Shown in pieces: positions 44,573-55,387 of a stretch of DNA of 64,000 nucleotides (position 1 is its first letter; every line of letters begins with the position of its first letter). The notes below the pieces were generated by a model, which had not been told where the DNA came from, searched no databases, and saw nothing but the letters and a program-made list of their open reading frames with translations. The stretch is from an uncultured Pelobacter sp. (GTDB lineage: Bacteria > Desulfobacterota > Desulfuromonadia > Geobacterales > Pseudopelobacteraceae), in assembly GCA_964542535.1 (NCBI GenBank), contig CAZIUE010000010.1, positions 82,937-146,936 on the forward strand, written 5' to 3'. Made by a program: the position numbers and the translations under genes.

Positions 44573-44790
44573 TGTATGGCTTTTTTGTTGTGGGTGCGTC
44601 GTTGTTAAGCTGGTTTTTGGCTGCTGCGACAGGTGCGTAAACTGTGACACATGCCACATTTTTACGTGCTATTTGCTGGTAGTGTTGCACGTAACGATCA
44701 CAAAACAACAAAAAAGATCTCAAATAAACGTATCAGGTGGTGCGCAGGCGGAATAAAAAGCGATCGACGCGTACCGCATACAATTGTAGA

Positions 44791-44874
44791 GACGACGATA
44801 ATACTAAACCATTCGCGAGAATGGGACGGAAAGCCTACAGGGTCTCACCGAGACAGCCGGGTTGCCGAAATGTC
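44791..44874 (+). ncRNA. GEMM-Ib riboswitch (c-AMP-GMP / 3'3'-cGAMP variant of c-di-GMP-I)
   Basis: AATACTAAACCATTC-GCGA-GAATGGGACGGAAAGCCTACAGGGTCTC...GAGACAGCCGGGTTGCCGAAAT; A at the G20-equivalent position (44803). Confidence 0.9.
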
Positions 44875-44911
44875 CAGCACTAGACGAGATATTTTCGGCC
44901 CCGGCTTTTTT
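44856..44911 (+). terminator. riboswitch-linked intrinsic terminator
   Basis: GCCGGG..GCCGAAATGTC pairs with GATA.TTTCGGCCCCGGC, followed by T6; overlaps the aptamer 3' strand. Confidence 0.8.
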
Positions 44912-45031
44912 GCGTCCGGAGGTGTGTTGTGATGACATGGGGCGAGGAGGGTACATGAAGAATAACGACGGCAGTTTGATAACGCATGATTCGGGAGGTG
45001 GGACGACGGAAACGAGCGGAACTGGTAGTAC

Positions 45032-45123
45032 GCCTGAAAAGGGCAAACCATTCGAAAGGGTGGGACGCAAAACCACTGGTCTAAATCCTGGGACTTCAGG
45101 ACATGACGGCAGGGCTGCCGGGC
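45032..45123 (+). ncRNA. c-di-GMP-I (GEMM-I) riboswitch
   Basis: AAAAGGGCAAACCATTC-GAAA-GGGTGGGACGCAAA...GGTCTAA...GGGCTGCC; P1 GCCTG/CGGGC; G at position 20 (45042). Confidence 0.88.
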
Positions 45124-45185
45124 TTAAGCAGTACCTCCTTGTGAGGTGCGGTTTGCTCAGGCACGGACAACAAGGAGAGAAAAGA

Positions 45186-46211
45186 ATGAAATCATGTACA
45201 GCAGTTTCAACAAAATCAGGACTGGTAATTATCCCGGGGTTGGTGCGGGCCGCACTGTTAGCCCTTGTCGCCGCAACCCTCGTCTGCCCTGCGCGGGCCC
45301 GTGCGGGACAGGCAACCCTCGCCTGGTCCGGCACGACGGATCAGAATGTTGCCGGGTACAAGCTGTACTACAGCAACAGCTCGGGTACGTACTCACAATC
45401 TGTGGACGTTGGAAACACGACAAGTTATACTATTAAAAACCTGACTGATGGAAAAACTTACTACTTTGCCGCTGCCGCCTATGATGTATCCGGAAATCAG
45501 AGTGATTATTCCAACGAGGTGAGCAAGAGTATTCCGGTGGTTCAGTATACGGTAAACGCCGGCGCGGGAACAGGTGGGACGATATCACCTTCGGGTTCGG
45601 TGTCCGTCAGTTCAGGTGCAAGCCAGTCATTCTCCATAAGCCCCGCGACGGGGTACAAGATAGCGGATGTGGAGGTTGATGGCGCATCGATCGGTGCGGT
45701 CAGCAGCTATACATTCAGTAATGTTACCGCCAGCCATTCCATTTCCGCAACCTTCTCGGCCCAGGCGGTCTCAATTACCCCCCACTGGAACGATGCGACG
45801 ACAGCCAAAACGGCCCTGCTTTCGGCTAATCCGAATTACATGATGTGGAGCCCCGTTGTCGCGGATGCCACGGCAAAGGTAACGAGTCTGCGGGTGAGCG
45901 TCGGTCTCTACGGTACGTCATCACAGGTCAGGTTGGCGCTCTACGACAAGAGCGGCAAAAAATTGACCGAGGGGGTCGGGACCGTATCTTCGACAGGGTA
46001 CAAATCCGTCAGCGTCCCTTCCGTGAGTGTTACCAAAGGGTACACCTATTACGTGGCCGTTCAGCCATCCTCCAGCCAACTGAAGAGTATTGACTGCGGT
46101 GCGAAAACAGGAGGTTTTGCGGCAAAAAACAGTTATTCCAAGGGACTCCCGGCAACATTACCCCGTGGATGGTCAGGCGAACTGCTTACCTCGGGCATGT
46201 ACATCCAGTAG
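45186..46211 (+). CDS. secreted FN3-domain protein with InlB-B-repeat-like and C-terminal beta-sandwich domains
   Basis: AAGGAG SD; signal peptide ending ARA; ATLAW..GYKLYY..YYFAAAAYD.SGNQS.YSNE; YTV..AG.GG.ISPSG...GY.I.DV.VDG repeat. Confidence 0.8.
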   Translation: MKSCTAVSTKSGLVIIPGLVRAALLALVAATLVCPARARAGQATLAWSGTTDQNVAGYKLYYSNSSGTYSQSVDVGNTTSYTIKNLTDGKTYYFAAAAYDVSGNQSDYSNEVSKSIPVVQYTVNAGAGTGGTISPSGSVSVSSGASQSFSISPATGYKIADVEVDGASIGAVSSYTFSNVTASHSISATFSAQAVSITPHWNDATTAKTALLSANPNYMMWSPVVADATAKVTSLRVSVGLYGTSSQVRLALYDKSGKKLTEGVGTVSSTGYKSVSVPSVSVTKGYTYYVAVQPSSSQLKSIDCGAKTGGFAAKNSYSKGLPATLPRGWSGELLTSGMYIQ

Positions 46212-46318: not shown

Positions 46319-47935
46319 ATGAAACGCAAAAAAAATGTCAGCAAGCCGGGAATCCTTTTGTTTACACTCCTGCTGTGCGGCGCGACAACCCATGTTTGGG
46401 CGGCAACCTATTATGTGGACGCCGTAAATGGTAACGACAGCTATTCCGGCACCCAGACGGCACCCTGGCGTTCCATTGCGAAAGTCAAGGCAACCGCGCT
46501 TAAGGCCGGGGATGCCGTGTATTTCAAGTCGGGGGGGAGCTGGGACGAGTTGCTTGTGCCTGCTTCGGGAGTGAGTGGAACACCGGTGGTGTATGGAGCC
46601 TATGGCACGGGAAACAGGCCGGTTATCCGTGGGTTAAGCGCTGATAACAAGTCCTATGTGCGCATCGACGGCCTCAGCTTCAAAAACGGCAGTTATAATC
46701 ATCCGGTTCTGATAACCAACTCGTCCCATCACATAAGTATTTATAATTGCGACATCATTGCCGATACTTCCAATTCGACCTGGGCAGCCCTGTATATTTT
46801 GAACAACTCCCATCATAACGAGGTTGTCGGCTGTACCATTGAGCATCTCAATACCGGCCGGCAATCCGATGCCGTTAATTTGCGGCTGAACGCCAATTAC
46901 AATCTTATCAAGAACAACAAGATCGGCTCCGCTACCCACTACGCCCTTTCCCTGGAAGGAAACAATGCCACCTATCCCGGGTATACATGCAACTACAACA
47001 TCATCATGAATAACGTAATCAACAACCCTAATGGAGCCCAGATGAGCCTCCAGTCTGAGGCGTCTAATAACGTCGTGGATAGCAACGTCATCACCGGCGG
47101 CAAGAGTACCACGTACTGCGCCAACCTGCCGAGAGCCTTTAAAAACGTGAGCAGGAACAACATTATACGCAGGAACGTCATTAGGGACAACATGGAGACC
47201 ACGGGGAGTGGCCTGGGAACGGAGGTGTATGCCTATACCGACTATCCCGCCAACATCGCAACGGGCAATCGTATTTACAGCAACCTGATAACCAATATTT
47301 ACAGGTACCCCATCGTTATGGCCACAAACGGGGATGCGGGGGCGACAGCCTACAACAATATATACAAAAATAACGTTATTTATAATAACGTGTCATCGTA
47401 CCAGGCCGTGATTCAAGCCCACTCGGCGATCAAGGATAACTATTTTCAGAACAACCTGTTTTATCGCTCTGGCGTTACGAACGTGCTGAGTATCGGTGGT
47501 GTAGGGAAAAGCGTTGCTGGTGCCGAATCAGGCGATCCCCTGCACTGGAAGGGTAATATCCAGAAGGACCCGTACCTCGGTGTCGATTACCAGCCGTTGT
47601 CCGGTTCTCCCTGTGTTGATGGAGGTGAACATCTGGCTTCTGTCACGAGCGCAAGTGGTTCCGGCATGACGTTAACGGTATCTGATGCCAGGTATTTCAC
47701 CGATGGCTATGGTGTTGTCCAGGGAGATACGATACGGGTCGGAAAAATGACGGCAACGATTTCATCAATAAACTACTCTACCAATACCATTACCCTGAAG
47801 GAGTCGATCGCGTGGCAACAAGGTGATCCGGTGAATCTGCCGTTTTCGGGCAGCAAGCCGGATATCGGGGCATACGAGTTTGCCGATCAGGGGTCAACGC
47901 TTCTCCCCCCCCTGAATCTGAAAGTTATCCAGTAA
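46319..47935 (+). CDS. secreted right-handed parallel beta-helix protein (polysaccharide lyase / adhesin-like)
   Basis: Signal peptide; YYVD...GND..SG....PW.SI; Asn-ladder repeats; GSPCVDGG...PDIGAYEF; terminal PPLNLKVIQ. Confidence 0.8.
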   Translation: MKRKKNVSKPGILLFTLLLCGATTHVWAATYYVDAVNGNDSYSGTQTAPWRSIAKVKATALKAGDAVYFKSGGSWDELLVPASGVSGTPVVYGAYGTGNRPVIRGLSADNKSYVRIDGLSFKNGSYNHPVLITNSSHHISIYNCDIIADTSNSTWAALYILNNSHHNEVVGCTIEHLNTGRQSDAVNLRLNANYNLIKNNKIGSATHYALSLEGNNATYPGYTCNYNIIMNNVINNPNGAQMSLQSEASNNVVDSNVITGGKSTTYCANLPRAFKNVSRNNIIRRNVIRDNMETTGSGLGTEVYAYTDYPANIATGNRIYSNLITNIYRYPIVMATNGDAGATAYNNIYKNNVIYNNVSSYQAVIQAHSAIKDNYFQNNLFYRSGVTNVLSIGGVGKSVAGAESGDPLHWKGNIQKDPYLGVDYQPLSGSPCVDGGEHLASVTSASGSGMTLTVSDARYFTDGYGVVQGDTIRVGKMTATISSINYSTNTITLKESIAWQQGDPVNLPFSGSKPDIGAYEFADQGSTLLPPLNLKVIQ

Positions 47936-48019: not shown

Positions 48020-49162
48020 CTACGCCGGGTCGGCATGAACAAGCATACTCAGGGCATAGAACATCCAGGCCTGTGACCACCGCATATAGGGGATGCGGTT
48101 CGTATACCATCGAGTTTTCTGATAGTAAAAATAGCCATGTTCATCCTGCATGTTGTCGATTGCCCATTCAGCTATGTCCTGTGCAAGGTGTATGCTGTCG
48201 CTGCGATGGCGGGACAAGGTGACAAGCGTAATTATCCCCTGCGCGGAACAGTGAATATCAATCGGATAAAGGGAGTCGTTATAGTATTTGGGGCACCCGT
48301 TGTTCAGCCAGAAGGTTCTCAGGTAGTAGTCGTAGGCATTGGTGAACTCCCGTTGCCACTGATATTCTCCGGTATATTCCATCCACTGTCCCAGGGAAAC
48401 GAGGTTGAAGCCGGTATGGAAGCTGTCGATGAATGGCCGTTTTTCAGCGTAAGGCCACGAATAATCTCTGCCCAGGGCCTGTAACGCAAAGAGCATCGCT
48501 TTTTTTGATTTCTCGTAGAGAACCCGGTCCCCGCTTTTATGAAAAACTCTTGCGAGCGCAGTGGCCGCGAGCATGTTTATGTTGTAGACGATGCTTCGAC
48601 TGCCCGGCATGTAACGGAAGCAGAGTGTTTCGCTATTCTCGAAGAAAATGAGGTTGTCGAGGACGAACCTGCAAGCGCGTTCAGCGATCTCCAGATAATT
48701 TCGGTCTCCCGTACGGTCGTAATAGTCCAGTAAAGCGTTGACGGAGAAGACGGTGGCAACCATGTTGGGCGTGTGTTTCGGAGTCAGAAATCTCCTCGCC
48801 TGCCAGTCAAAATTATATCCCCAACACGGGGCCTGGTAACCGGGTGAAGCCAACCCCATGAGAAGTTCGATAAGCTGTTTCGCCTCATCGTTTTTTTCCG
48901 CCAGCAGCAAACCGGAGATAAAAAGTGCTACTCCCTTCGGGTTGAAGCCTTTTGGAACGATGGTGATGTTTCTGAAATTGACTGGTGAGCGTTTGAACAG
49001 TTGAATCCATGCCAGACGGAGCAGGTAGGAATGGTGGAAAAGCGGGTTGTCGACAATCCGTGCATTGAGTCCGTCGTAGTTGTCCCAGCCCTGATAACGC
49101 TCCTTCCGGCAATAGGCGTACAGGGCGTTAAAGGAGTTTTGGATTTTACGTGTTTTGTTCAT
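48020..49162 (-). CDS. EPS-cluster protein of probable (alpha/alpha)6 barrel type, function unknown
   Basis: WGYNFDWQ, PN.VAT, IDSFHTGFNL, YPIDIH, DEHGYFYYQ, YMRWSQAW. Confidence 0.65.
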   Translation of the reverse strand: MNKTRKIQNSFNALYAYCRKERYQGWDNYDGLNARIVDNPLFHHSYLLRLAWIQLFKRSPVNFRNITIVPKGFNPKGVALFISGLLLAEKNDEAKQLIELLMGLASPGYQAPCWGYNFDWQARRFLTPKHTPNMVATVFSVNALLDYYDRTGDRNYLEIAERACRFVLDNLIFFENSETLCFRYMPGSRSIVYNINMLAATALARVFHKSGDRVLYEKSKKAMLFALQALGRDYSWPYAEKRPFIDSFHTGFNLVSLGQWMEYTGEYQWQREFTNAYDYYLRTFWLNNGCPKYYNDSLYPIDIHCSAQGIITLVTLSRHRSDSIHLAQDIAEWAIDNMQDEHGYFYYQKTRWYTNRIPYMRWSQAWMFYALSMLVHADPA

Positions 49163-49189
49163 GGCACCACACCCCGATCCGGCCCGGAT

Positions 49190-50254
49190 TCAGGCCAGCA
49201 CGTCGCGGAAATATCCATTCAGCCTCGTTACAACGGTGCGTATTTCATAGTTCGTTTTCGCCTTAAGTCTGTTGTTCGAGGATATGGTTTCGCAGGCCGC
49301 GTTATTGTTGAGTAACTGCCTTATTTTACGTGCGAAATCTTCAGGCTCGCAGGACGGTACAAGGAAGCCGTTTTCCCGCTCGATGATAATTTCCGGTATG
49401 GCCGCAACGGGCCTGGATACGATCACCAGCCCCGCGCCCATACCCTCAAGTATGCTGTTGGGCATTCCTTCTCCATAACTGGTGGGGAAAAGCATGATTC
49501 CGCACCTGTTCAGAACCTGGCTTTTTTTCTCCTGCTCCAGCCAGCCGGTAAAGAGTATGGTCTCTTCCAGTCCACGGGATGAAACGTACTGCTGCAACTG
49601 TGGCAGCAATGGCCCGTCTCCAACCATGTACAGTTTTATGTCAGGGAATTCTGTAGCAAGAATTTCAACCGTTTTGACTGCGGTAAAACAGCCTTTGCCC
49701 TCGGCAAAGCGGGAGAGATACATCAGGTTTGCATAGTTGGTGTGTGTCTCTTCCCCCGTTTCTTCGTAGGTTGTTGTTTCAAGTATGATGCTGTGGGGAC
49801 AATATCCCCACGAGATCAGCAGGTCCCTGTAGTGACGAGATAAAACCAGGCACTTGTCGGGATTGAAGACGAGGCGGATCAGGCTCCGACACTTCCGGTT
49901 GACGAAGTTTGTGGTTTCCTCGTTCCATCCGCGAAAGAACACCATGGTTTTCTTGTTGAATACTCTTTTAGCCAGGATGTGGTAGATGCCGTCTCGGACG
50001 AGTGACTTTACGTCAAAAGAAGGGTTTATAACTATCAGATCATGCCGTTTGAACCGTGCAAGCAGGCTGGTCGCGTCCAGGATACCTGTGTATACGCGTC
50101 GTGCGAGACCTGGTGCGGAGCCGCACCTGCCGACGGGAAAAAAAGACACGTCGACAGTATCGGATCTGAAGTGTTTATTTACGAGCGAATAATAGTGTGC
50201 CACGCCCCCTCTTTCAGATAGGTGAGGGCAAAGAATCAAGACGCTTTTGGGCAT
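49190..50254 (-). CDS. GT4 glycosyltransferase
   Basis: LSRF..GKG, GDGP, FPTSYGEGMPNSILEGM. Confidence 0.88.
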   Translation of the reverse strand: MPKSVLILCPHLSERGGVAHYYSLVNKHFRSDTVDVSFFPVGRCGSAPGLARRVYTGILDATSLLARFKRHDLIVINPSFDVKSLVRDGIYHILAKRVFNKKTMVFFRGWNEETTNFVNRKCRSLIRLVFNPDKCLVLSRHYRDLLISWGYCPHSIILETTTYEETGEETHTNYANLMYLSRFAEGKGCFTAVKTVEILATEFPDIKLYMVGDGPLLPQLQQYVSSRGLEETILFTGWLEQEKKSQVLNRCGIMLFPTSYGEGMPNSILEGMGAGLVIVSRPVAAIPEIIIERENGFLVPSCEPEDFARKIRQLLNNNAACETISSNNRLKAKTNYEIRTVVTRLNGYFRDVLA

Positions 50255-50279
50255 GATCCCTCCCTTTCCGGCGTCACGC

Positions 50280-51494
50280 TCATAATGATCTGAATAACTC
50301 CACAAGCAGCCTGCCGTTGTTCAAAGGATTGAAATACATACGGCATTTCTCTCTGCCCGAGCGGCCGATCCGGATCGCATGGTCCTGTTGTGTGATGAGA
50401 AACCTGATGGCCTCCTCGATGTCCCGTACATCCCCTGGTGTCGTGAGCAGTGCGTCCTTCATATGCTCCAGGTACCGGGTTACGTCGCTGTTTCTTGATG
50501 CGATAACCGGATTTCCCGTTGCCAGGTACTCGCCAAGTTTGAAGGGAAAGCCGGCATTGGCGAAATCGGTGCTCGTTCTTGTCATGCACAAGATATCCGC
50601 GTCACGGAGAAAATCGTAGAACTGCTCATCATCGAGATACCCTACCAGGTGTATTGCCGGGTTCCTCTCGATTCTCTTCCTGATATGGGCCATGCGTTCA
50701 TCACTTCCCTTTCCGGTAAGGAACAGCTTGATATCCTCCGTGGTGTCCCGCACGGATTCGAAGGCGTCTATGAGGTCGTCCACTCCATCCTTGGTGGCAA
50801 AACTGCCCGAGTATACGAGTCTGACCGGTGAATGAAAGCAGTGCTTATGCGGGCCGTCATCTGCTTGTGCCGACACCGGGATCAGTCGTATGGATTCCCT
50901 GTTGCGACATAACGTGGAATATTTTTTGTACAGGTGCGTTGAAATGACGACGACCCCATCGGCGATGAGGTGTAAAAAACGCTCGAATAATGAAATGGAT
51001 TTTACTTTTATCCTGGAAAGACGGGACAACCCTCCGCCAAACACGGCATAGTCCTCGACGATATCAAAAACTACTCTGTATCCGAGCAATTTGGCCGTTA
51101 CGACGAACACGATGTTTTCGATACTCGGGCTGCCATAGCAAAAGCATATATTCTTGCTCTTCCGTACTTTCCAGCGCAGCAGGCAGATGAATCCTTCCCA
51201 CAGGTAGAGCGGAAGACGCCAAACCAGACGCACATCTGGCGTCAAACCGCTCCCGATTTTTCTGTACAGTGTCCCTCGGTACCATCCCGACGATTCTTGG
51301 GGTGACACCTCCTTCGCGCCCCGATCCAACAGCAACAGGGTAACGGTGAATCCATGGCTTTGCAGAGCATCAATGAAATGCTGCACTCGTTTCGTTGCGG
51401 CCATTCCCTGGGGGTAGGAAAATCTTCCCACAATGACAACGTTTATGTCTTCTCCCGCAGGAAGAGGGCGCGTCGATAGGGACTCATGATTCAT
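50280..51494 (-). CDS. GT4 glycosyltransferase
   Basis: YSGSF..KDG, FPFKLGEYLATGNPVI; start uncertain (51494-51515). Confidence 0.85.
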   Translation of the reverse strand: MNHESLSTRPLPAGEDINVVIVGRFSYPQGMAATKRVQHFIDALQSHGFTVTLLLLDRGAKEVSPQESSGWYRGTLYRKIGSGLTPDVRLVWRLPLYLWEGFICLLRWKVRKSKNICFCYGSPSIENIVFVVTAKLLGYRVVFDIVEDYAVFGGGLSRLSRIKVKSISLFERFLHLIADGVVVISTHLYKKYSTLCRNRESIRLIPVSAQADDGPHKHCFHSPVRLVYSGSFATKDGVDDLIDAFESVRDTTEDIKLFLTGKGSDERMAHIRKRIERNPAIHLVGYLDDEQFYDFLRDADILCMTRTSTDFANAGFPFKLGEYLATGNPVIASRNSDVTRYLEHMKDALLTTPGDVRDIEEAIRFLITQQDHAIRIGRSGREKCRMYFNPLNNGRLLVELFRSL

Positions 51495-52782
51495 TGTCGT
51501 CATCTTGAGCGTCATCGGCGAGATAGCCGTGGCATCTGCCGGCCAGCAGACAAAGAAAATAGCTGTAAGGGGTTAAAGATGGATGGGAATAAGTGCTTAC
51601 CCCAAGGCAGGCAATCCCCCACAGGATCAGCAATGCCGAGGCAGCGGCATCGTCTTCCCGGGCTCCCCTGAAGTATGCCCGGAATCCGGGGACGATAATC
51701 AGGATGATGTAGGGGATAAGGATGGGCACGCCACCGATAAACGCCATCCACACGAACGAATTGTCGAAATACTGGTACTCCTCGTCGCCGAAAAACCAAG
51801 TGCCGTTTGGCCCTCGCCCCAGAATCAAATCGGAAGCCGGAACCTGATCGAAAAACTCCAGGTACTGGCCGGTGCGGGTGTCGTCATACATGCGCTCTCC
51901 CAGCATGCCGAAGGCTGTACCAACTTCTTTCTGGAACAGCACACCGGCGACCAGAAGTAAAGCCAGTATGGACAAGATGACTTTGCCGCGGACAAAACGT
52001 GGTTCATCACCCTCGTCGCTGGAAGGGGACCTGATGAACAAAAAAGCCGTGAGCAGGAGAATTGCCATGAGAATCCATGAACGGGTCTGGGTAAAGATGG
52101 CGGTACACAGGAATGCGATATAGGGAAATGCCCGGACGTATAGTCTCCATCCTGTTGCTTTTCTCGATGTCAGCAGGGTCCAGCCGGCAAACCAGGCCAG
52201 AACGATCATAATCAGCACGGGGCCGGATTCGAACCTCACATCGATTTCCCTGTGCGTTGCAACGGCATACATTGCCAGGGCGGCCGTAAGGTATGAGAGG
52301 GTCGTGCTGACCGATCCGAGGAGACGCCATATCGTTTGTTTCATGCCGGCAAAGAGCAGAATACAGGAAAGCCAGACCAGGGGGCCGGTCGCTCCCAGCG
52401 CCTTCCAGGAAAGATAGTCTTTCAGTTCGTAGGTGACGAGTGCCCAGCAGATACTTGCCGTCTGCATCGTCCAGAACGCAATTTTGGCCGACGGGCACAG
52501 CCTTCTGTATTGGCCGGAAACGGCCGCCAGCATACCCGCGCCAATGACCGACACTATGCCCGTTGCATGCAGGAGGTAGTAGAGCGCCGGCTTGCTCTGC
52601 GGATCGTGGTAGGCGTTATCCGGGTTGATGCCGACGGTCAGCGCCACCATCATCGCCGCGCACCATGATGCAATCAGGGCGATGGAGGCGAGCAGCGAGA
52701 CGGTTCCGTCGAAACGGTACTCATCGTCGTCAGGGAGATAGTCCATACATCCTTCCGCATGCTCGTTGACCTGTTGTGACAT
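51484..52782 (-). CDS. wzy: Wzy-like polysaccharide polymerase / O-antigen-ligase-like membrane protein
   Basis: About 11 TM segments, TQTRS, periplasmic loop DTR...ILGRG..G...DN; position in cluster. Confidence 0.65.
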   Translation of the reverse strand: MSQQVNEHAEGCMDYLPDDDEYRFDGTVSLLASIALIASWCAAMMVALTVGINPDNAYHDPQSKPALYYLLHATGIVSVIGAGMLAAVSGQYRRLCPSAKIAFWTMQTASICWALVTYELKDYLSWKALGATGPLVWLSCILLFAGMKQTIWRLLGSVSTTLSYLTAALAMYAVATHREIDVRFESGPVLIMIVLAWFAGWTLLTSRKATGWRLYVRAFPYIAFLCTAIFTQTRSWILMAILLLTAFLFIRSPSSDEGDEPRFVRGKVILSILALLLVAGVLFQKEVGTAFGMLGERMYDDTRTGQYLEFFDQVPASDLILGRGPNGTWFFGDEEYQYFDNSFVWMAFIGGVPILIPYIILIIVPGFRAYFRGAREDDAAASALLILWGIACLGVSTYSHPSLTPYSYFLCLLAGRCHGYLADDAQDDDNES

Positions 52783-52816
52783 GATGACCTCACTCGTGGC
52801 TTTGCCCATTGTCGGG

Positions 52817-54133
52817 CTATCCCCTTCTCGAAAACCGCACCAGGGCAAGCAGCAACAGGCTCGTCCCGATGGAATAACTGTGCAGGTGAGCAAGCGCCAG
52901 TGTCCGGGAACATGCGGCCATTCCGGCAAAACATAACAGCAGCAAGAGTCCGCCACGCACGATGTCCAGGAAAAACATCTGTTTCGACTGCTCGCCAGCC
53001 CATAATCCTGCTGAGGCTATCGTCCACGCCGCACTCACGCAACTGGTAAGGGCAATAATCCGCAAGACGTCATACCCTCTGGCAAACTCGGGCCCATACC
53101 AGACCATCAGTTGTTCGGAAAACAGATACACCGGAAACGACAGTAGCAGCACAAAAAGCGTACCCATTCCCCCCGCCCCCAGAAGAGTCTTCCTGAAACC
53201 GCTTCTGTTGCCGGTCGCATACAGGTTCGACAGGAGGGGGACCGTAACCTGGAAAATCCTCTGGGGAATGAAGATGATAATATTCTGGAGCCGTTGCGCC
53301 GCGTTGAACAGGGCGAATTCCGGGACTCCCCCGGGTTGGCGCACCAGCAGTATCCCGGCGAACCAGTTGGTCAGGTTCATGGCCATTCCGCTCAGCCAGA
53401 CCAGTGCGGACATCCGCAGGATACTACGTTCTCCCCAGGCTCCGTGATAGCTTATTGCGATGGAGAAGCCCGCGCACTGTGTTCTGATGTACCATTGTCC
53501 GAAGATACAGCCGACCAGGCTTATGATGGCGAATGCAACGATTGCTCCGTACAGGCCGGCGGAGTACGCCCCCATGATAACGACGGGCAGGAGAAACAAT
53601 GCCTGCCAGATGCTGATCCGGGCACTTCGGTTAAATGCTTCAAGTCCCGCCAGGATGCGCAACTGGATGCTGTTAATCATCTCACAGATGAGCCACAGCG
53701 CAGCGAGTCGCAATTCCGTAGAAATGCTGCTTCCCGGTAGAAGCTTTCTCGAAATACTTTGCGAAAACAGAGCCAGACAGGCTCCCGCCATACATGCCAT
53801 GGCACAGGTAAACGCCAGGGAAAAACCTATGATGCGTCCGGCTCTTTTCGGGTCGGTGGTTCTGGTTCTTGCAACATACGTGGTGCTTGAGAGGCCTATC
53901 CCTGCCTGTCCAAAGCCGCTTAGCATCAGTATCGTGCCCTGAACAACCGCCAGTTTCCCGAAATCCGCAATGCCAAGGAAGCGCGCCGCCACGATCCCCG
54001 CAAGAAACTGCGCCCCCTGTCTCAAGGATGATCCCAGCACGACCCATGCCATGCCGCGAGCAAAGCGCTCGCGCAACGAGTTGTCCGGGAAGTGCCGTGA
54101 AAACAGCTGGCCGAAGAAGCGGAGTACTCCCAT
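52817..54133 (-). CDS. wzx: Wzx oligosaccharide flippase
   Basis: ARFLG...FG motif, multi-TM MOP-type pattern, YGPEF. Confidence 0.8.
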   Translation of the reverse strand: MGVLRFFGQLFSRHFPDNSLRERFARGMAWVVLGSSLRQGAQFLAGIVAARFLGIADFGKLAVVQGTILMLSGFGQAGIGLSSTTYVARTRTTDPKRAGRIIGFSLAFTCAMACMAGACLALFSQSISRKLLPGSSISTELRLAALWLICEMINSIQLRILAGLEAFNRSARISIWQALFLLPVVIMGAYSAGLYGAIVAFAIISLVGCIFGQWYIRTQCAGFSIAISYHGAWGERSILRMSALVWLSGMAMNLTNWFAGILLVRQPGGVPEFALFNAAQRLQNIIIFIPQRIFQVTVPLLSNLYATGNRSGFRKTLLGAGGMGTLFVLLLSFPVYLFSEQLMVWYGPEFARGYDVLRIIALTSCVSAAWTIASAGLWAGEQSKQMFFLDIVRGGLLLLLCFAGMAACSRTLALAHLHSYSIGTSLLLLALVRFSRRG

Positions 54134-54325
54134 GGCTGTTCATCGCTTTCCGTGTGCTGACACAAAGGGAGGAACGTTGCTTTTCGTTGTTTCACGGCCA
54201 CGGATCAGCAGCCCCATGGCTGGGCTGATGGTGTCAAATCCGTTCCGGAAGCACATTGGTGGTGTCACCGGGGAGAAACGTTCCCCTTGTTCAGTGAACG
54301 CGGCAGGCCCGTTGCACTGTTATGT

Positions 54326-55387
54326 CTAACTGCCGGGGCTTCTTTCCAGCAATTCCAGGATCTTCTCGACGATCGCTTTCAGCGCTGGACGGTTCTCCCG
54401 GTCTGGGGAAGCAGGTCGTGCCCATTTGCGGAGAGTCACCCGGGTGTTCAGGTCCTCCGCGTTTTCCAGAAGCGTCAGCCGGCCACTCTTAGACAGATAC
54501 CTGTCCACCGCGCCTATCTCTCCTCTGAATATGCTGTAAACCGGTACACCCAACGCCGCTGCCTCGCGATTCATGGTACCGCCACCACTGATAACGAGAT
54601 CCGAATACCAGATCAGGTTGAGTCCGTCCAGCACCCGGTCGGGGATCACGACTTTCCGCTCACTGATCAGGGCAGGCCATGTTTTGCCTATGTAATCCGT
54701 CTGGTGGTCGTTTCTGGGTAATATCACCATGCGGAGATTGTCGATTCCGGCGAGCCAGGTGATGGTGGCATGAAACAGATCGTCACTCTTGGGATTATGG
54801 TAGTGGGCTTCGTTTGCGGGAGGGCGGATGGTGACTACGATCTCGTTTTCGGAGATGCCCAGTTCCGACAGTATGCCCGCTTGTGGGATGAAAGCGGGAA
54901 CGTAGACATCTTCCTTTATGCCGGGATAGGTGCTGATACGGGAGGGATTCCGCCAATGCTGTTCAGCGGGGATGGTATCCGGGACCATCAGCCAGTCTGA
55001 ACTGAGAAACAAGGGCATTTTGTTGGCATGCTCGTAATCTGAGAGCTGGAGCGCGGGAATGTGCAGCATCTTTGCCGCGAGCAGCTGGGAGCGGGAACCG
55101 TGGGCAACTGCAAGGGAGGGAAGGGGGGTACCCATGCTTTGTTTCATCTGCAGTGCCCGTATCACGGCCCCCAGGATCTTGAACAGTTTGTGCTTTCCGT
55201 AGTGATGTCCGATTCTCTGGTAGGTGAGACCGTACAGGTCGGCCAGTCCGCAGACCTGGAAGCAGTCGCGTGCGGTAATGATTACCCCGTAACCATATCC
55301 CCGCAGCTCGTCGATGATCGGCTTGAAGAAGGGGACATGGGGTGAATTTTCCAGGTCAATCCACAGCGTTTTGTTTTTCGCGTTCAT
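54326..55387 (-). CDS. DUF354 family (GT-B-like) protein
   Basis: WIDL.NSPHV.FF.P, GGGTMNREAAALG.P, GAVD.YL. Confidence 0.85.
   Translation of the reverse strand: MNAKNKTLWIDLENSPHVPFFKPIIDELRGYGYGVIITARDCFQVCGLADLYGLTYQRIGHHYGKHKLFKILGAVIRALQMKQSMGTPLPSLAVAHGSRSQLLAAKMLHIPALQLSDYEHANKMPLFLSSDWLMVPDTIPAEQHWRNPSRISTYPGIKEDVYVPAFIPQAGILSELGISENEIVVTIRPPANEAHYHNPKSDDLFHATITWLAGIDNLRMVILPRNDHQTDYIGKTWPALISERKVVIPDRVLDGLNLIWYSDLVISGGGTMNREAAALGVPVYSIFRGEIGAVDRYLSKSGRLTLLENAEDLNTRVTLRKWARPASPDRENRPALKAIVEKILELLERSPGS

Follow-up and report, generated by a model that had tools for sequence, protein, structure and literature searches.

The leader of a two-gene operon in the window (the whole 64 kb stretch of DNA that was analyzed) carries two aptamers of the GEMM-I class, each with its own expression platform, and it is fairly probable, judging from predicted folds and homologous loci, that this leader works as a "cGAMP AND NOT c-di-GMP" gate, which would combine two ligands and two mechanisms and act directly on gene 1. 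Transcription would read past a terminator under cGAMP, after which c-di-GMP would close off translation of a likely secreted FN3 protein. A wider reading, given slightly better than even chances, is that of an RNA-only comparator of two cyclic dinucleotides, conserved in three Geobacter-like families, in which one fold used twice turns transcription ON with cGAMP and translation OFF with c-di-GMP; a newer cGAMP switch would have been placed before an older, phylum-wide OFF module on FN3 genes, and the element would mark proteins of a transiently attached lifestyle.

Two aptamers and two expression platforms

The Rfam c-di-GMP-I covariance model (RF01051, gathering score 35 bits) gives, as the sole two matches listed in the window, positions 44793-44869 (aptamer 1, 48.7 bits) and 45032-45122 (aptamer 2, 76.9 bits; annotated as 45032-45123). 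Both lie on the forward strand, as do the genes and all the leader features described below, span model positions 1-87 and, with scores above 35 bits, belong to the GEMM-I (c-di-GMP-I) family. They are 162 nt apart, in agreement with a first-pass annotation of the sequence that had placed two GEMM-I aptamers about 160 nt from each other and whose coordinates are all correct. Aptamer 1 is of the GEMM-Ib type, with AATACTAAACC at 44800-44810 placing an adenine at position 20 (A20, 44803) and with the canonical pocket residues A47 (44830) and C92 (44865) kept. Aptamer 2 is a canonical GEMM-I aptamer that contains AGGGCAAACC at 45040-45049 and shows the c-di-GMP-I pocket (G20 at 45042, A47 at 45069 and C92 at 45118), its P1 helix being formed by 45032-45036 and 45119-45123. 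From position 20 and the presence of the cGAMP synthase GacA, aptamer 1 is predicted to sense 3',3'-cGAMP and aptamer 2 c-di-GMP.

An intrinsic terminator (44855-44911, with a T6 tract at 44906-44911) takes the 3' strand of aptamer 1, so that the earlier description of an A at 44803 followed by such a terminator holds in both sequence and fold. The terminator hairpin (44855-44906) has a fold z of -4.31, matched by none of 200 shuffles; the terminator is absent from the list of a simple terminator scanner. In predicted folds it is mutually exclusive with the aptamer and, by close homology, binding of cGAMP would prevent its formation and transcription would continue. Aptamer 1 is 81-94% identical to 11 of the 15 aptamers listed for G048 (a genome of the same order whose aptamers match published G. 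sulfurreducens riboswitch positions), namely those with A20 and a CT(A/C)AA backbone; its own backbone is CTAAA, and it shares 87% identity with the G048 aptamer at the pgcA position. The A20, the overlapping terminator and these close homologs support the proposal of a GEMM-Ib-type transcriptional ON switch.

Aptamer 2 was also described correctly as having G at 45042, no U tract in the leader downstream of it, and a TCAGGC motif (45157-45162) complementary to GCCTGA (45032-45037) in the 5' strand of P1. Its platform had been taken as probably translational, and a G20 switch of this kind is supported by the pocket, the platform and the folds, although an anti-Shine-Dalgarno (anti-SD) segment at 45132-45142 had been missed. 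The core of this segment, CTCCTTGT (45135-45142), is complementary to the Shine-Dalgarno (SD) region of gene 1, ACAAGGAG (45170-45177), the gene starting 63 nt downstream of aptamer 2. An anti-anti-SD or anti-P1 segment (45143-45163) would pair with 45116-45138 in the ligand-free nascent RNA: in the predicted fold, 45116-45163 is one continuous hairpin that consumes C92 and the 3' strand of P1 and buries the anti-SD. Such a nascent hairpin is seen in the folds of 20 of 20 aligned homologs, in which the aptamer 5' strand lies outside the folded piece. The nascent hairpin and the anti-SD:SD helix cross and are therefore mutually exclusive. The pairing foreseen for TCAGGC stands in so far as it breaks P1, which is disrupted by either pairing of 45155-45163, but the more likely partner is the aptamer 3' strand rather than the P1 5' strand (85% versus 73% of cells paired, neither above shuffles).

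On this basis, aptamer 2 is predicted to be a translational OFF switch under c-di-GMP. When c-di-GMP is absent, the 45116-45163 hairpin would take the aptamer 3' strand and hide the anti-SD, so that the SD emerges open and ribosomes load; when it is bound, P1 would be locked and the long hairpin blocked, and the anti-SD would pair with the SD and shut translation. In silico, the anti-SD:SD helix is compatible with the aptamer and exclusive with the ligand-free alternative. Across 20 aligned loci (the training sample, from which L108 was left out, no SD-start being found in it and its platform being different), SD opening became more than 1 kcal/mol costlier in 19 once the aptamer strand was locked, the sole exception being L101, with a degenerate C20 aptamer; the mean rise was 6.0 kcal/mol, versus 1.9 for shuffled platforms. 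With the whole aptamer enforced and 60 nt of the spacer added, 19 of the 20 loci show the anti-SD paired to the SD. The ddG of the window's own locus is reached by 6 of 30 shuffled platforms. Among 36 held-out loci the opening cost rose by more than 1 in 30 (mean 5.0 versus 1.5 for shuffles), and the cognate duplex was favored over non-cognate ones in 31 of 36 cases for anti-SD:SD and in 30 of 36 for the aptamer 3' strand with the middle segment, in a test that is inflated by the choice of these loci with a model containing the anti-SD:SD helix. In this held-out set L189 was dropped (no ORF found) and the mis-anchored L238 and L199 were kept among the 36; the run supersedes a smaller pass in which ddG was above 1 in 11 of the 14 loci handled (of 19). 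On an unfitted alignment the anti-SD:SD helix is 79% paired (reached by 4 of 500 shuffles, and its covariation score by 19 of 500), the anti-P1 helix being reached by 199 and 342 of 500 shuffles, with weak column covariation; both helices covary strongly on the fitted alignment, which leans towards the model.

In the window's own leader the equilibrium openness of the SD is 0.86 when ligand-free, against 0.00, but only 5 of the 20 homologs have an SD that is clearly more open in the ligand-free state, and in most of the homologs the anti-SD:SD helix is the predominant ligand-free structure at equilibrium. Since the SD is mostly closed in both states at equilibrium in most homologs, kinetic (co-transcriptional) control is needed. 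The barrier for refolding from the nascent to the closed structure averages 19.3 kcal/mol in the free RNA versus 9.7 kcal/mol in the bound one, and is higher for the free RNA in 20 of 20 homologs. The decision would probably be kinetic, most homologs requiring trapping and prompt ribosome loading. Because folding predicts translational OFF, "cGAMP AND NOT c-di-GMP" is favored over AND, so that of the two logics initially proposed (AND or NIMPLY) NIMPLY is the more likely and AND is disfavored.

Regulated genes and the ligands of the two aptamers

Gene 1 (45186-46211) encodes a 341-aa, likely secreted protein with an N-terminal hydrophobic signal-like segment and an FN3 domain (PF00041, 31 bits); its ortholog in a second genome, G001, is 71% identical. 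Gene 2 (46319-47935, about 538 aa) also codes for a signal-like segment and has its own SD; downstream of it lies a strong hairpin with a run of T. Its product has no Pfam match, single-sequence structure prediction reached a pLDDT of just 35.7, and a PDB search gave one short match; it is likely a right-handed beta-helix protein, its resemblance to beta-helix proteins in the Atlas being a lead only. The gene 1-gene 2 unit is kept in G001. Control of both surface proteins had been envisaged; this would hold for gene 1, on which aptamer 2 would act directly, and not for the translation of gene 2, which starts from its own SD at ATG 46319 and would be reached through transcription or polarity. 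In the window a polysaccharide-synthesis cluster on the minus strand (48020-55387; glycosyltransferases, a flippase-type protein and DUF354) converges on the operon, and in G001 insertion-sequence-like genes lie downstream instead.

The output of c-di-GMP binding to aptamer 2 could also be something other than initiation at 45186, namely RNA stability, Rho or a bypass from an upstream start, which is considered unlikely. An SD-like GGAGG with ATG 44955 (44946-44957) shares the reading frame of gene 1, which stays open across aptamer 2 for 77 codons, and the Vc2 off-switch has been reported to act via the stability of an upstream small RNA (10.1101/617340, in the part drawn on here). However, just 2 of 20 tandem loci (the window and G001) show such an in-frame read-through, the platform is near-identical between these two while the spacer has diverged, and anti-SD complementarity follows SD changes across loci, all of which speaks against these other outputs. 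ATG 44955 is possibly vestigial, or possibly a bypass of aptamer 2 in this genus. Should a deletion between neighboring paralogs have produced the tandem, this ATG may be what is left of the start of an A20-only gene. The upstream in-frame ATG is retained in G001 despite a spacer 18 nt longer. A conserved leader peptide was rejected as a candidate: an SD and a start are found in 7 of 20 spacers, with differing frames and stops.

The ligands bear on a further alternative, in which those of the two aptamers are identical or overlap and the response is a band-pass one to a single messenger. The A20/G20 difference had been taken as setting the ligand, and it holds as a strong predictor but not as an absolute rule, some A20 aptamers being bispecific (PMC6140456, in part). 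In the portions of PMC6456294 used here, the A20G change makes a Geobacter GEMM-Ib aptamer selective for c-di-GMP, the selectivity of the pgcA switch for cGAMP is about 1200-fold, and the omcST switch responds to both messengers; Vc2 G20A and several natural GEMM-Ib aptamers also bind both ligands, but wild-type G20 Vc2 discriminates against cGAMP (PMC6140456, in part). At the omcST position, the aptamer of G048 combines A20 with a GTAAA backbone, whereas aptamer 1 has the CTAAA backbone and its closeness to the aptamer at the position of the selective pgcA switch. In addition, aptamers 1 and 2 are 57% identical and are thus, by sequence, separate lineages, and the G20 module stands alone in 13 genomes in which this query found no GacA ortholog. 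Shared ligands are therefore quite unlikely, and different ligands for the two aptamers are preferred.

The host genome encodes synthases for both messengers, which makes the proposed use of the two plausible. One of its 29 GGDEF matches is a REC-containing GacA ortholog with the Ser signature (G000:C7:98218-99648; GHLVGS and GGDEY, the S falling in the same alignment column as that of PDB 6d9m), which shares 50% identity with its G048 counterpart. This protein thus has the Ser/Thr signature residue expected of a Hypr GGDEF, a feature tied to Hypr enzymes (PMC6456294, in part). A second GGDEF protein (L118, G000:C13:110419-111492), probably membrane-anchored, has Thr at this position. The same genome contains 27 RF01051 matches, with A at position 20 in 5 and G in 22. 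About 12 near-identical G20 aptamers with terminator-like tails, found on contigs C7 (five of them), C24, C12, C2, C10, C13, C20 and C23, suggest a recent expansion. The host genome also has one copy (L124, G000:C35:3360-3446) of a GEMM-I variant that combines G20 with a G in place of C92 and with a terminator-like tail, and G048 has three (L244, L245 and L242), two of them as the second member of A20 tandems; near L124, an FN3-like gene and a probable Crp/Fnr-family gene were read by eye.

Recurrence of the leader, its promoter and its spacer

A search with aptamer 2 and its platform over 239 genomes of the order gave matches in 40. The 23 module loci considered here comprise L067, L142 and L143, which came from other searches, and the strongest loci of that search (the best 21 of those fetched were taken). 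One to three A20 aptamers lie upstream in 20 of the 23 (19 genomes, 3 families), all 32 upstream aptamers having A20 and a terminator-like tail, and the downstream aptamer has G20 in 19 of these 20 tandem loci, L101 having C20 and a broken P1. The order A20 with terminator, then G20 with platform, is found in 19 of the 23 module loci, and its recurrence is, at the sequence level, in excess of chance; kin among these loci are not independent, so that the counts show persistence and not separate origins. Loci with no upstream aptamer are L107, L142 and L098, the last with an A20 aptamer itself and before a different gene. Of 20 translated homologs, 19 start an FN3-type secreted protein, L098 again being the exception. 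All 19 tandem genomes have a Ser-type GacA (18 of 18 besides the host), a co-occurrence that is confounded with phylogeny. The distribution is patchy: the model R2 matches at least 17 of 151 genomes of the order, with the best 19 candidates per genome scored, and finds nothing above 52 bits in five named genomes that include G048 and G056. The same leaders are present in named records of Geobacter (Geobacter sp. AOG1, L174, among them) and of Geomonas; together with the G048 match to published G. sulfurreducens riboswitch positions, these records point to Geobacterales as the order. In four named Geomonas loci the A20 aptamer stands by itself. Three A20 terminator switches precede the second module in L091, L095 and L101, with four aptamers within about 900 nt, and the last aptamer of the L101 array has decayed. 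L098 (G003:C23) joins the same translational platform to a standalone A20 aptamer before an unrelated secreted-type gene, and is a candidate cGAMP translational OFF switch.

Outside the order, R2 was applied to 151 genomes sampled across the phylum, of which 28 from other orders gave matches; the weaker matches may be plain aptamers. Sixteen such loci were scanned and none had a second aptamer upstream. In loci selected by their FN3 proteins, 25 of 78 have a match of at least 75 bits, 21 of these not labelled Geobacteraceae, and among these 21 only L218 has an upstream Rfam match, with G20. In this locus, which belongs to a Thermodesulfovibrionales record, a G20 aptamer and its terminator-like tail precede the G20 translational module, possibly as a same-ligand bi-mechanism tandem. 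No GacA ortholog was found with this query in the 13 out-of-order genomes carrying the standalone G20 module, a result confounded with phylogeny. From these distributions we infer that the G20 OFF module with its FN3 gene would be older and standalone across the phylum, the cGAMP switch having been added in front of it in the GacA-bearing order.

Upstream of aptamer 1 there is a predicted CRP/FNR-like operator box (TGTGA-N6-CCACA, 44643-44658), which resembles the CRP consensus, and a predicted -10 hexamer, TAGTGT (44680-44685), 21 nt after the box and with the same spacing in G001. A box 21-24 nt before a -10 recurs in the window and in L067, L089, L096, L099, L100, L102, L104, L106, L107 and L143, which suggests a third, protein-level input. 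Of the 20 tandem loci, 10 have both box and -10 upstream of their proximal A20 aptamer (252 of 2000 shuffles), and 0 of 20 spacers contain the pair. The contigs assembled from 4 of the 12 listed sequencing runs include none that spans the leader, and the pieces over the aptamers come mostly from other organisms.

If a promoter inside the spacer fed aptamer 2, the two switches would stand on separate transcripts and the logic would be parallel and not serial. The module is standalone in 3 of 23 loci of the order and widely so outside it, L096 has a promoter-like box between two A20 aptamers, so that internal promoters exist in such arrays, and half of the tandem loci have no recognizable box anywhere, which makes an internal promoter of another type conceivable. 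Against this, besides the 20 spacers devoid of box and -10, a generic sigma-70 scan gave no promoter in the leader, the window's spacer included; the gaps between aptamers, which include the terminator, are only 76-83 nt in three loci and leave little room for an internal promoter; and the module of L142 lies about 115 nt after an upstream reading frame, which fits use in a read-through RNA. Separate transcripts are accordingly quite improbable, and the promoter-motif scan favors a single transcript for both switches.

The spacer also contains a start-less, SD-like GGAGGT (44994-44999), 38 nt before aptamer 2. Similar elements are found in 20 of 24 aptamer-2 loci versus 1 of 32 A20 aptamers, and a start codon follows in 1 of 20 loci. 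Their distance to the aptamer 2 that follows is 27-47 nt, with 9 loci at exactly 38 nt, and the sequence around them has diverged; they are complementary to the 16S tail and unresponsive to anti-SD changes. The element may be a ribosome stand-by, stabilizing or protein site; as an anti-SD decoy it was rejected, the anti-SD being mainly on it in 0 of 20 loci with the aptamer enforced. It is very unlikely that such a GGAGGT makes the leader an AND gate by capturing the anti-SD once P1 forms, or that c-di-GMP turns translation ON in some other way: the conserved element is complementary to the anti-SD, with duplex energies near or better than those of the SD in the window, G001 and L097, and the anti-SD:SD helix prevails in most ligand-free homologs at equilibrium, but under the enforced aptamer the anti-SD sits on the SD in 19 of 20 loci, GGAGGT is unchanged where the anti-SD has changed (L099 and L100, -6.7 and -7.8 versus -15.9 and -19.8), and it was not seen in the 60 nt before standalone modules outside the order.

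Comparison with known systems

According to the parts of PMC6456294 considered here, cGAMP and c-di-GMP signal distinct lifestyles and, as has been proposed, push Geobacter towards opposite ways of living on surfaces; the two are linked by a cross-talk in which c-di-GMP inhibits the cGAMP synthase GacA. If the proposed gate is real, a leader reading both messengers would add integration at the target mRNA, and a family of uncharacterized secreted FN3 proteins would be named as markers of a transient state. The element is compact and present in Geobacter sp. AOG1, and it could serve as a ratio reporter for both messengers.

Aptamer 1 by itself shows no notable difference from the Geobacter GEMM-Ib switches (Gs1761 pgcA, Gmet_0970 and pilM; PMC6456294 and PMC9262584, in part), with which it shares A20, the backbone and a terminator that sequesters the C that pairs with the ligand; the terminator architecture of the pilM ON switch is the same (PMC9262584, in part). 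What differs is the G20 switch behind it, predicted to be translational. Leaders with two GEMM-I aptamers are also known from G. sulfurreducens (GSU0183a/b, GSU2885a/b, GSU1945a/b and GSU1948a/b), published as tandem GEMM-1b, and the GSU1945-type leader likewise precedes an FN3-like gene and is heterotypic with A20 first (PMC6456294, in part). Unlike aptamer 2, however, the second aptamer of the two heterotypic G048 leaders has G20, a G in place of C92 and a terminator-like tail, and neither G048 nor G056 has a comparable translational module above the R2 score given earlier. Vc2 of Vibrio cholerae shares the G20/A47/C92 pocket with aptamer 2 and is described as a translational OFF switch with P1 as the switching element (PMC9262584, in part), as predicted for aptamer 2; Vc2 is single whereas the window's leader is tandem, and the likeness concerns the pocket and the OFF description.

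As for tandem logic, the A AND NOT B gates of PMC9481103 (ZTP/THF-I, ZTP/glycine and Na+-I/c-di-AMP) are serial independent switches, ON and then OFF, as is predicted here, and the SAM-II/SAM-V bi-mechanism tandem also places the transcriptional switch before the translational one (same source, main text in part). Table 2 of that work has 18 logic-gate pairs, none of them c-AMP-GMP/c-di-GMP. The 347 c-di-GMP-I doublets counted there are treated as same-ligand; the present leader suggests that part of these are two-input gates. No report of a c-AMP-GMP/c-di-GMP tandem pair was found in the literature searched, which was covered mostly at abstract level, with the 2015 founding papers and the supplement of PMC9481103 outside its scope. 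Within that literature the parts and the class are known and their combination appears undescribed: compared with the gates in the part of PMC9481103 drawn on here, both inputs of this leader would be second messengers read by one fold, and two ligands would be joined to two mechanisms.
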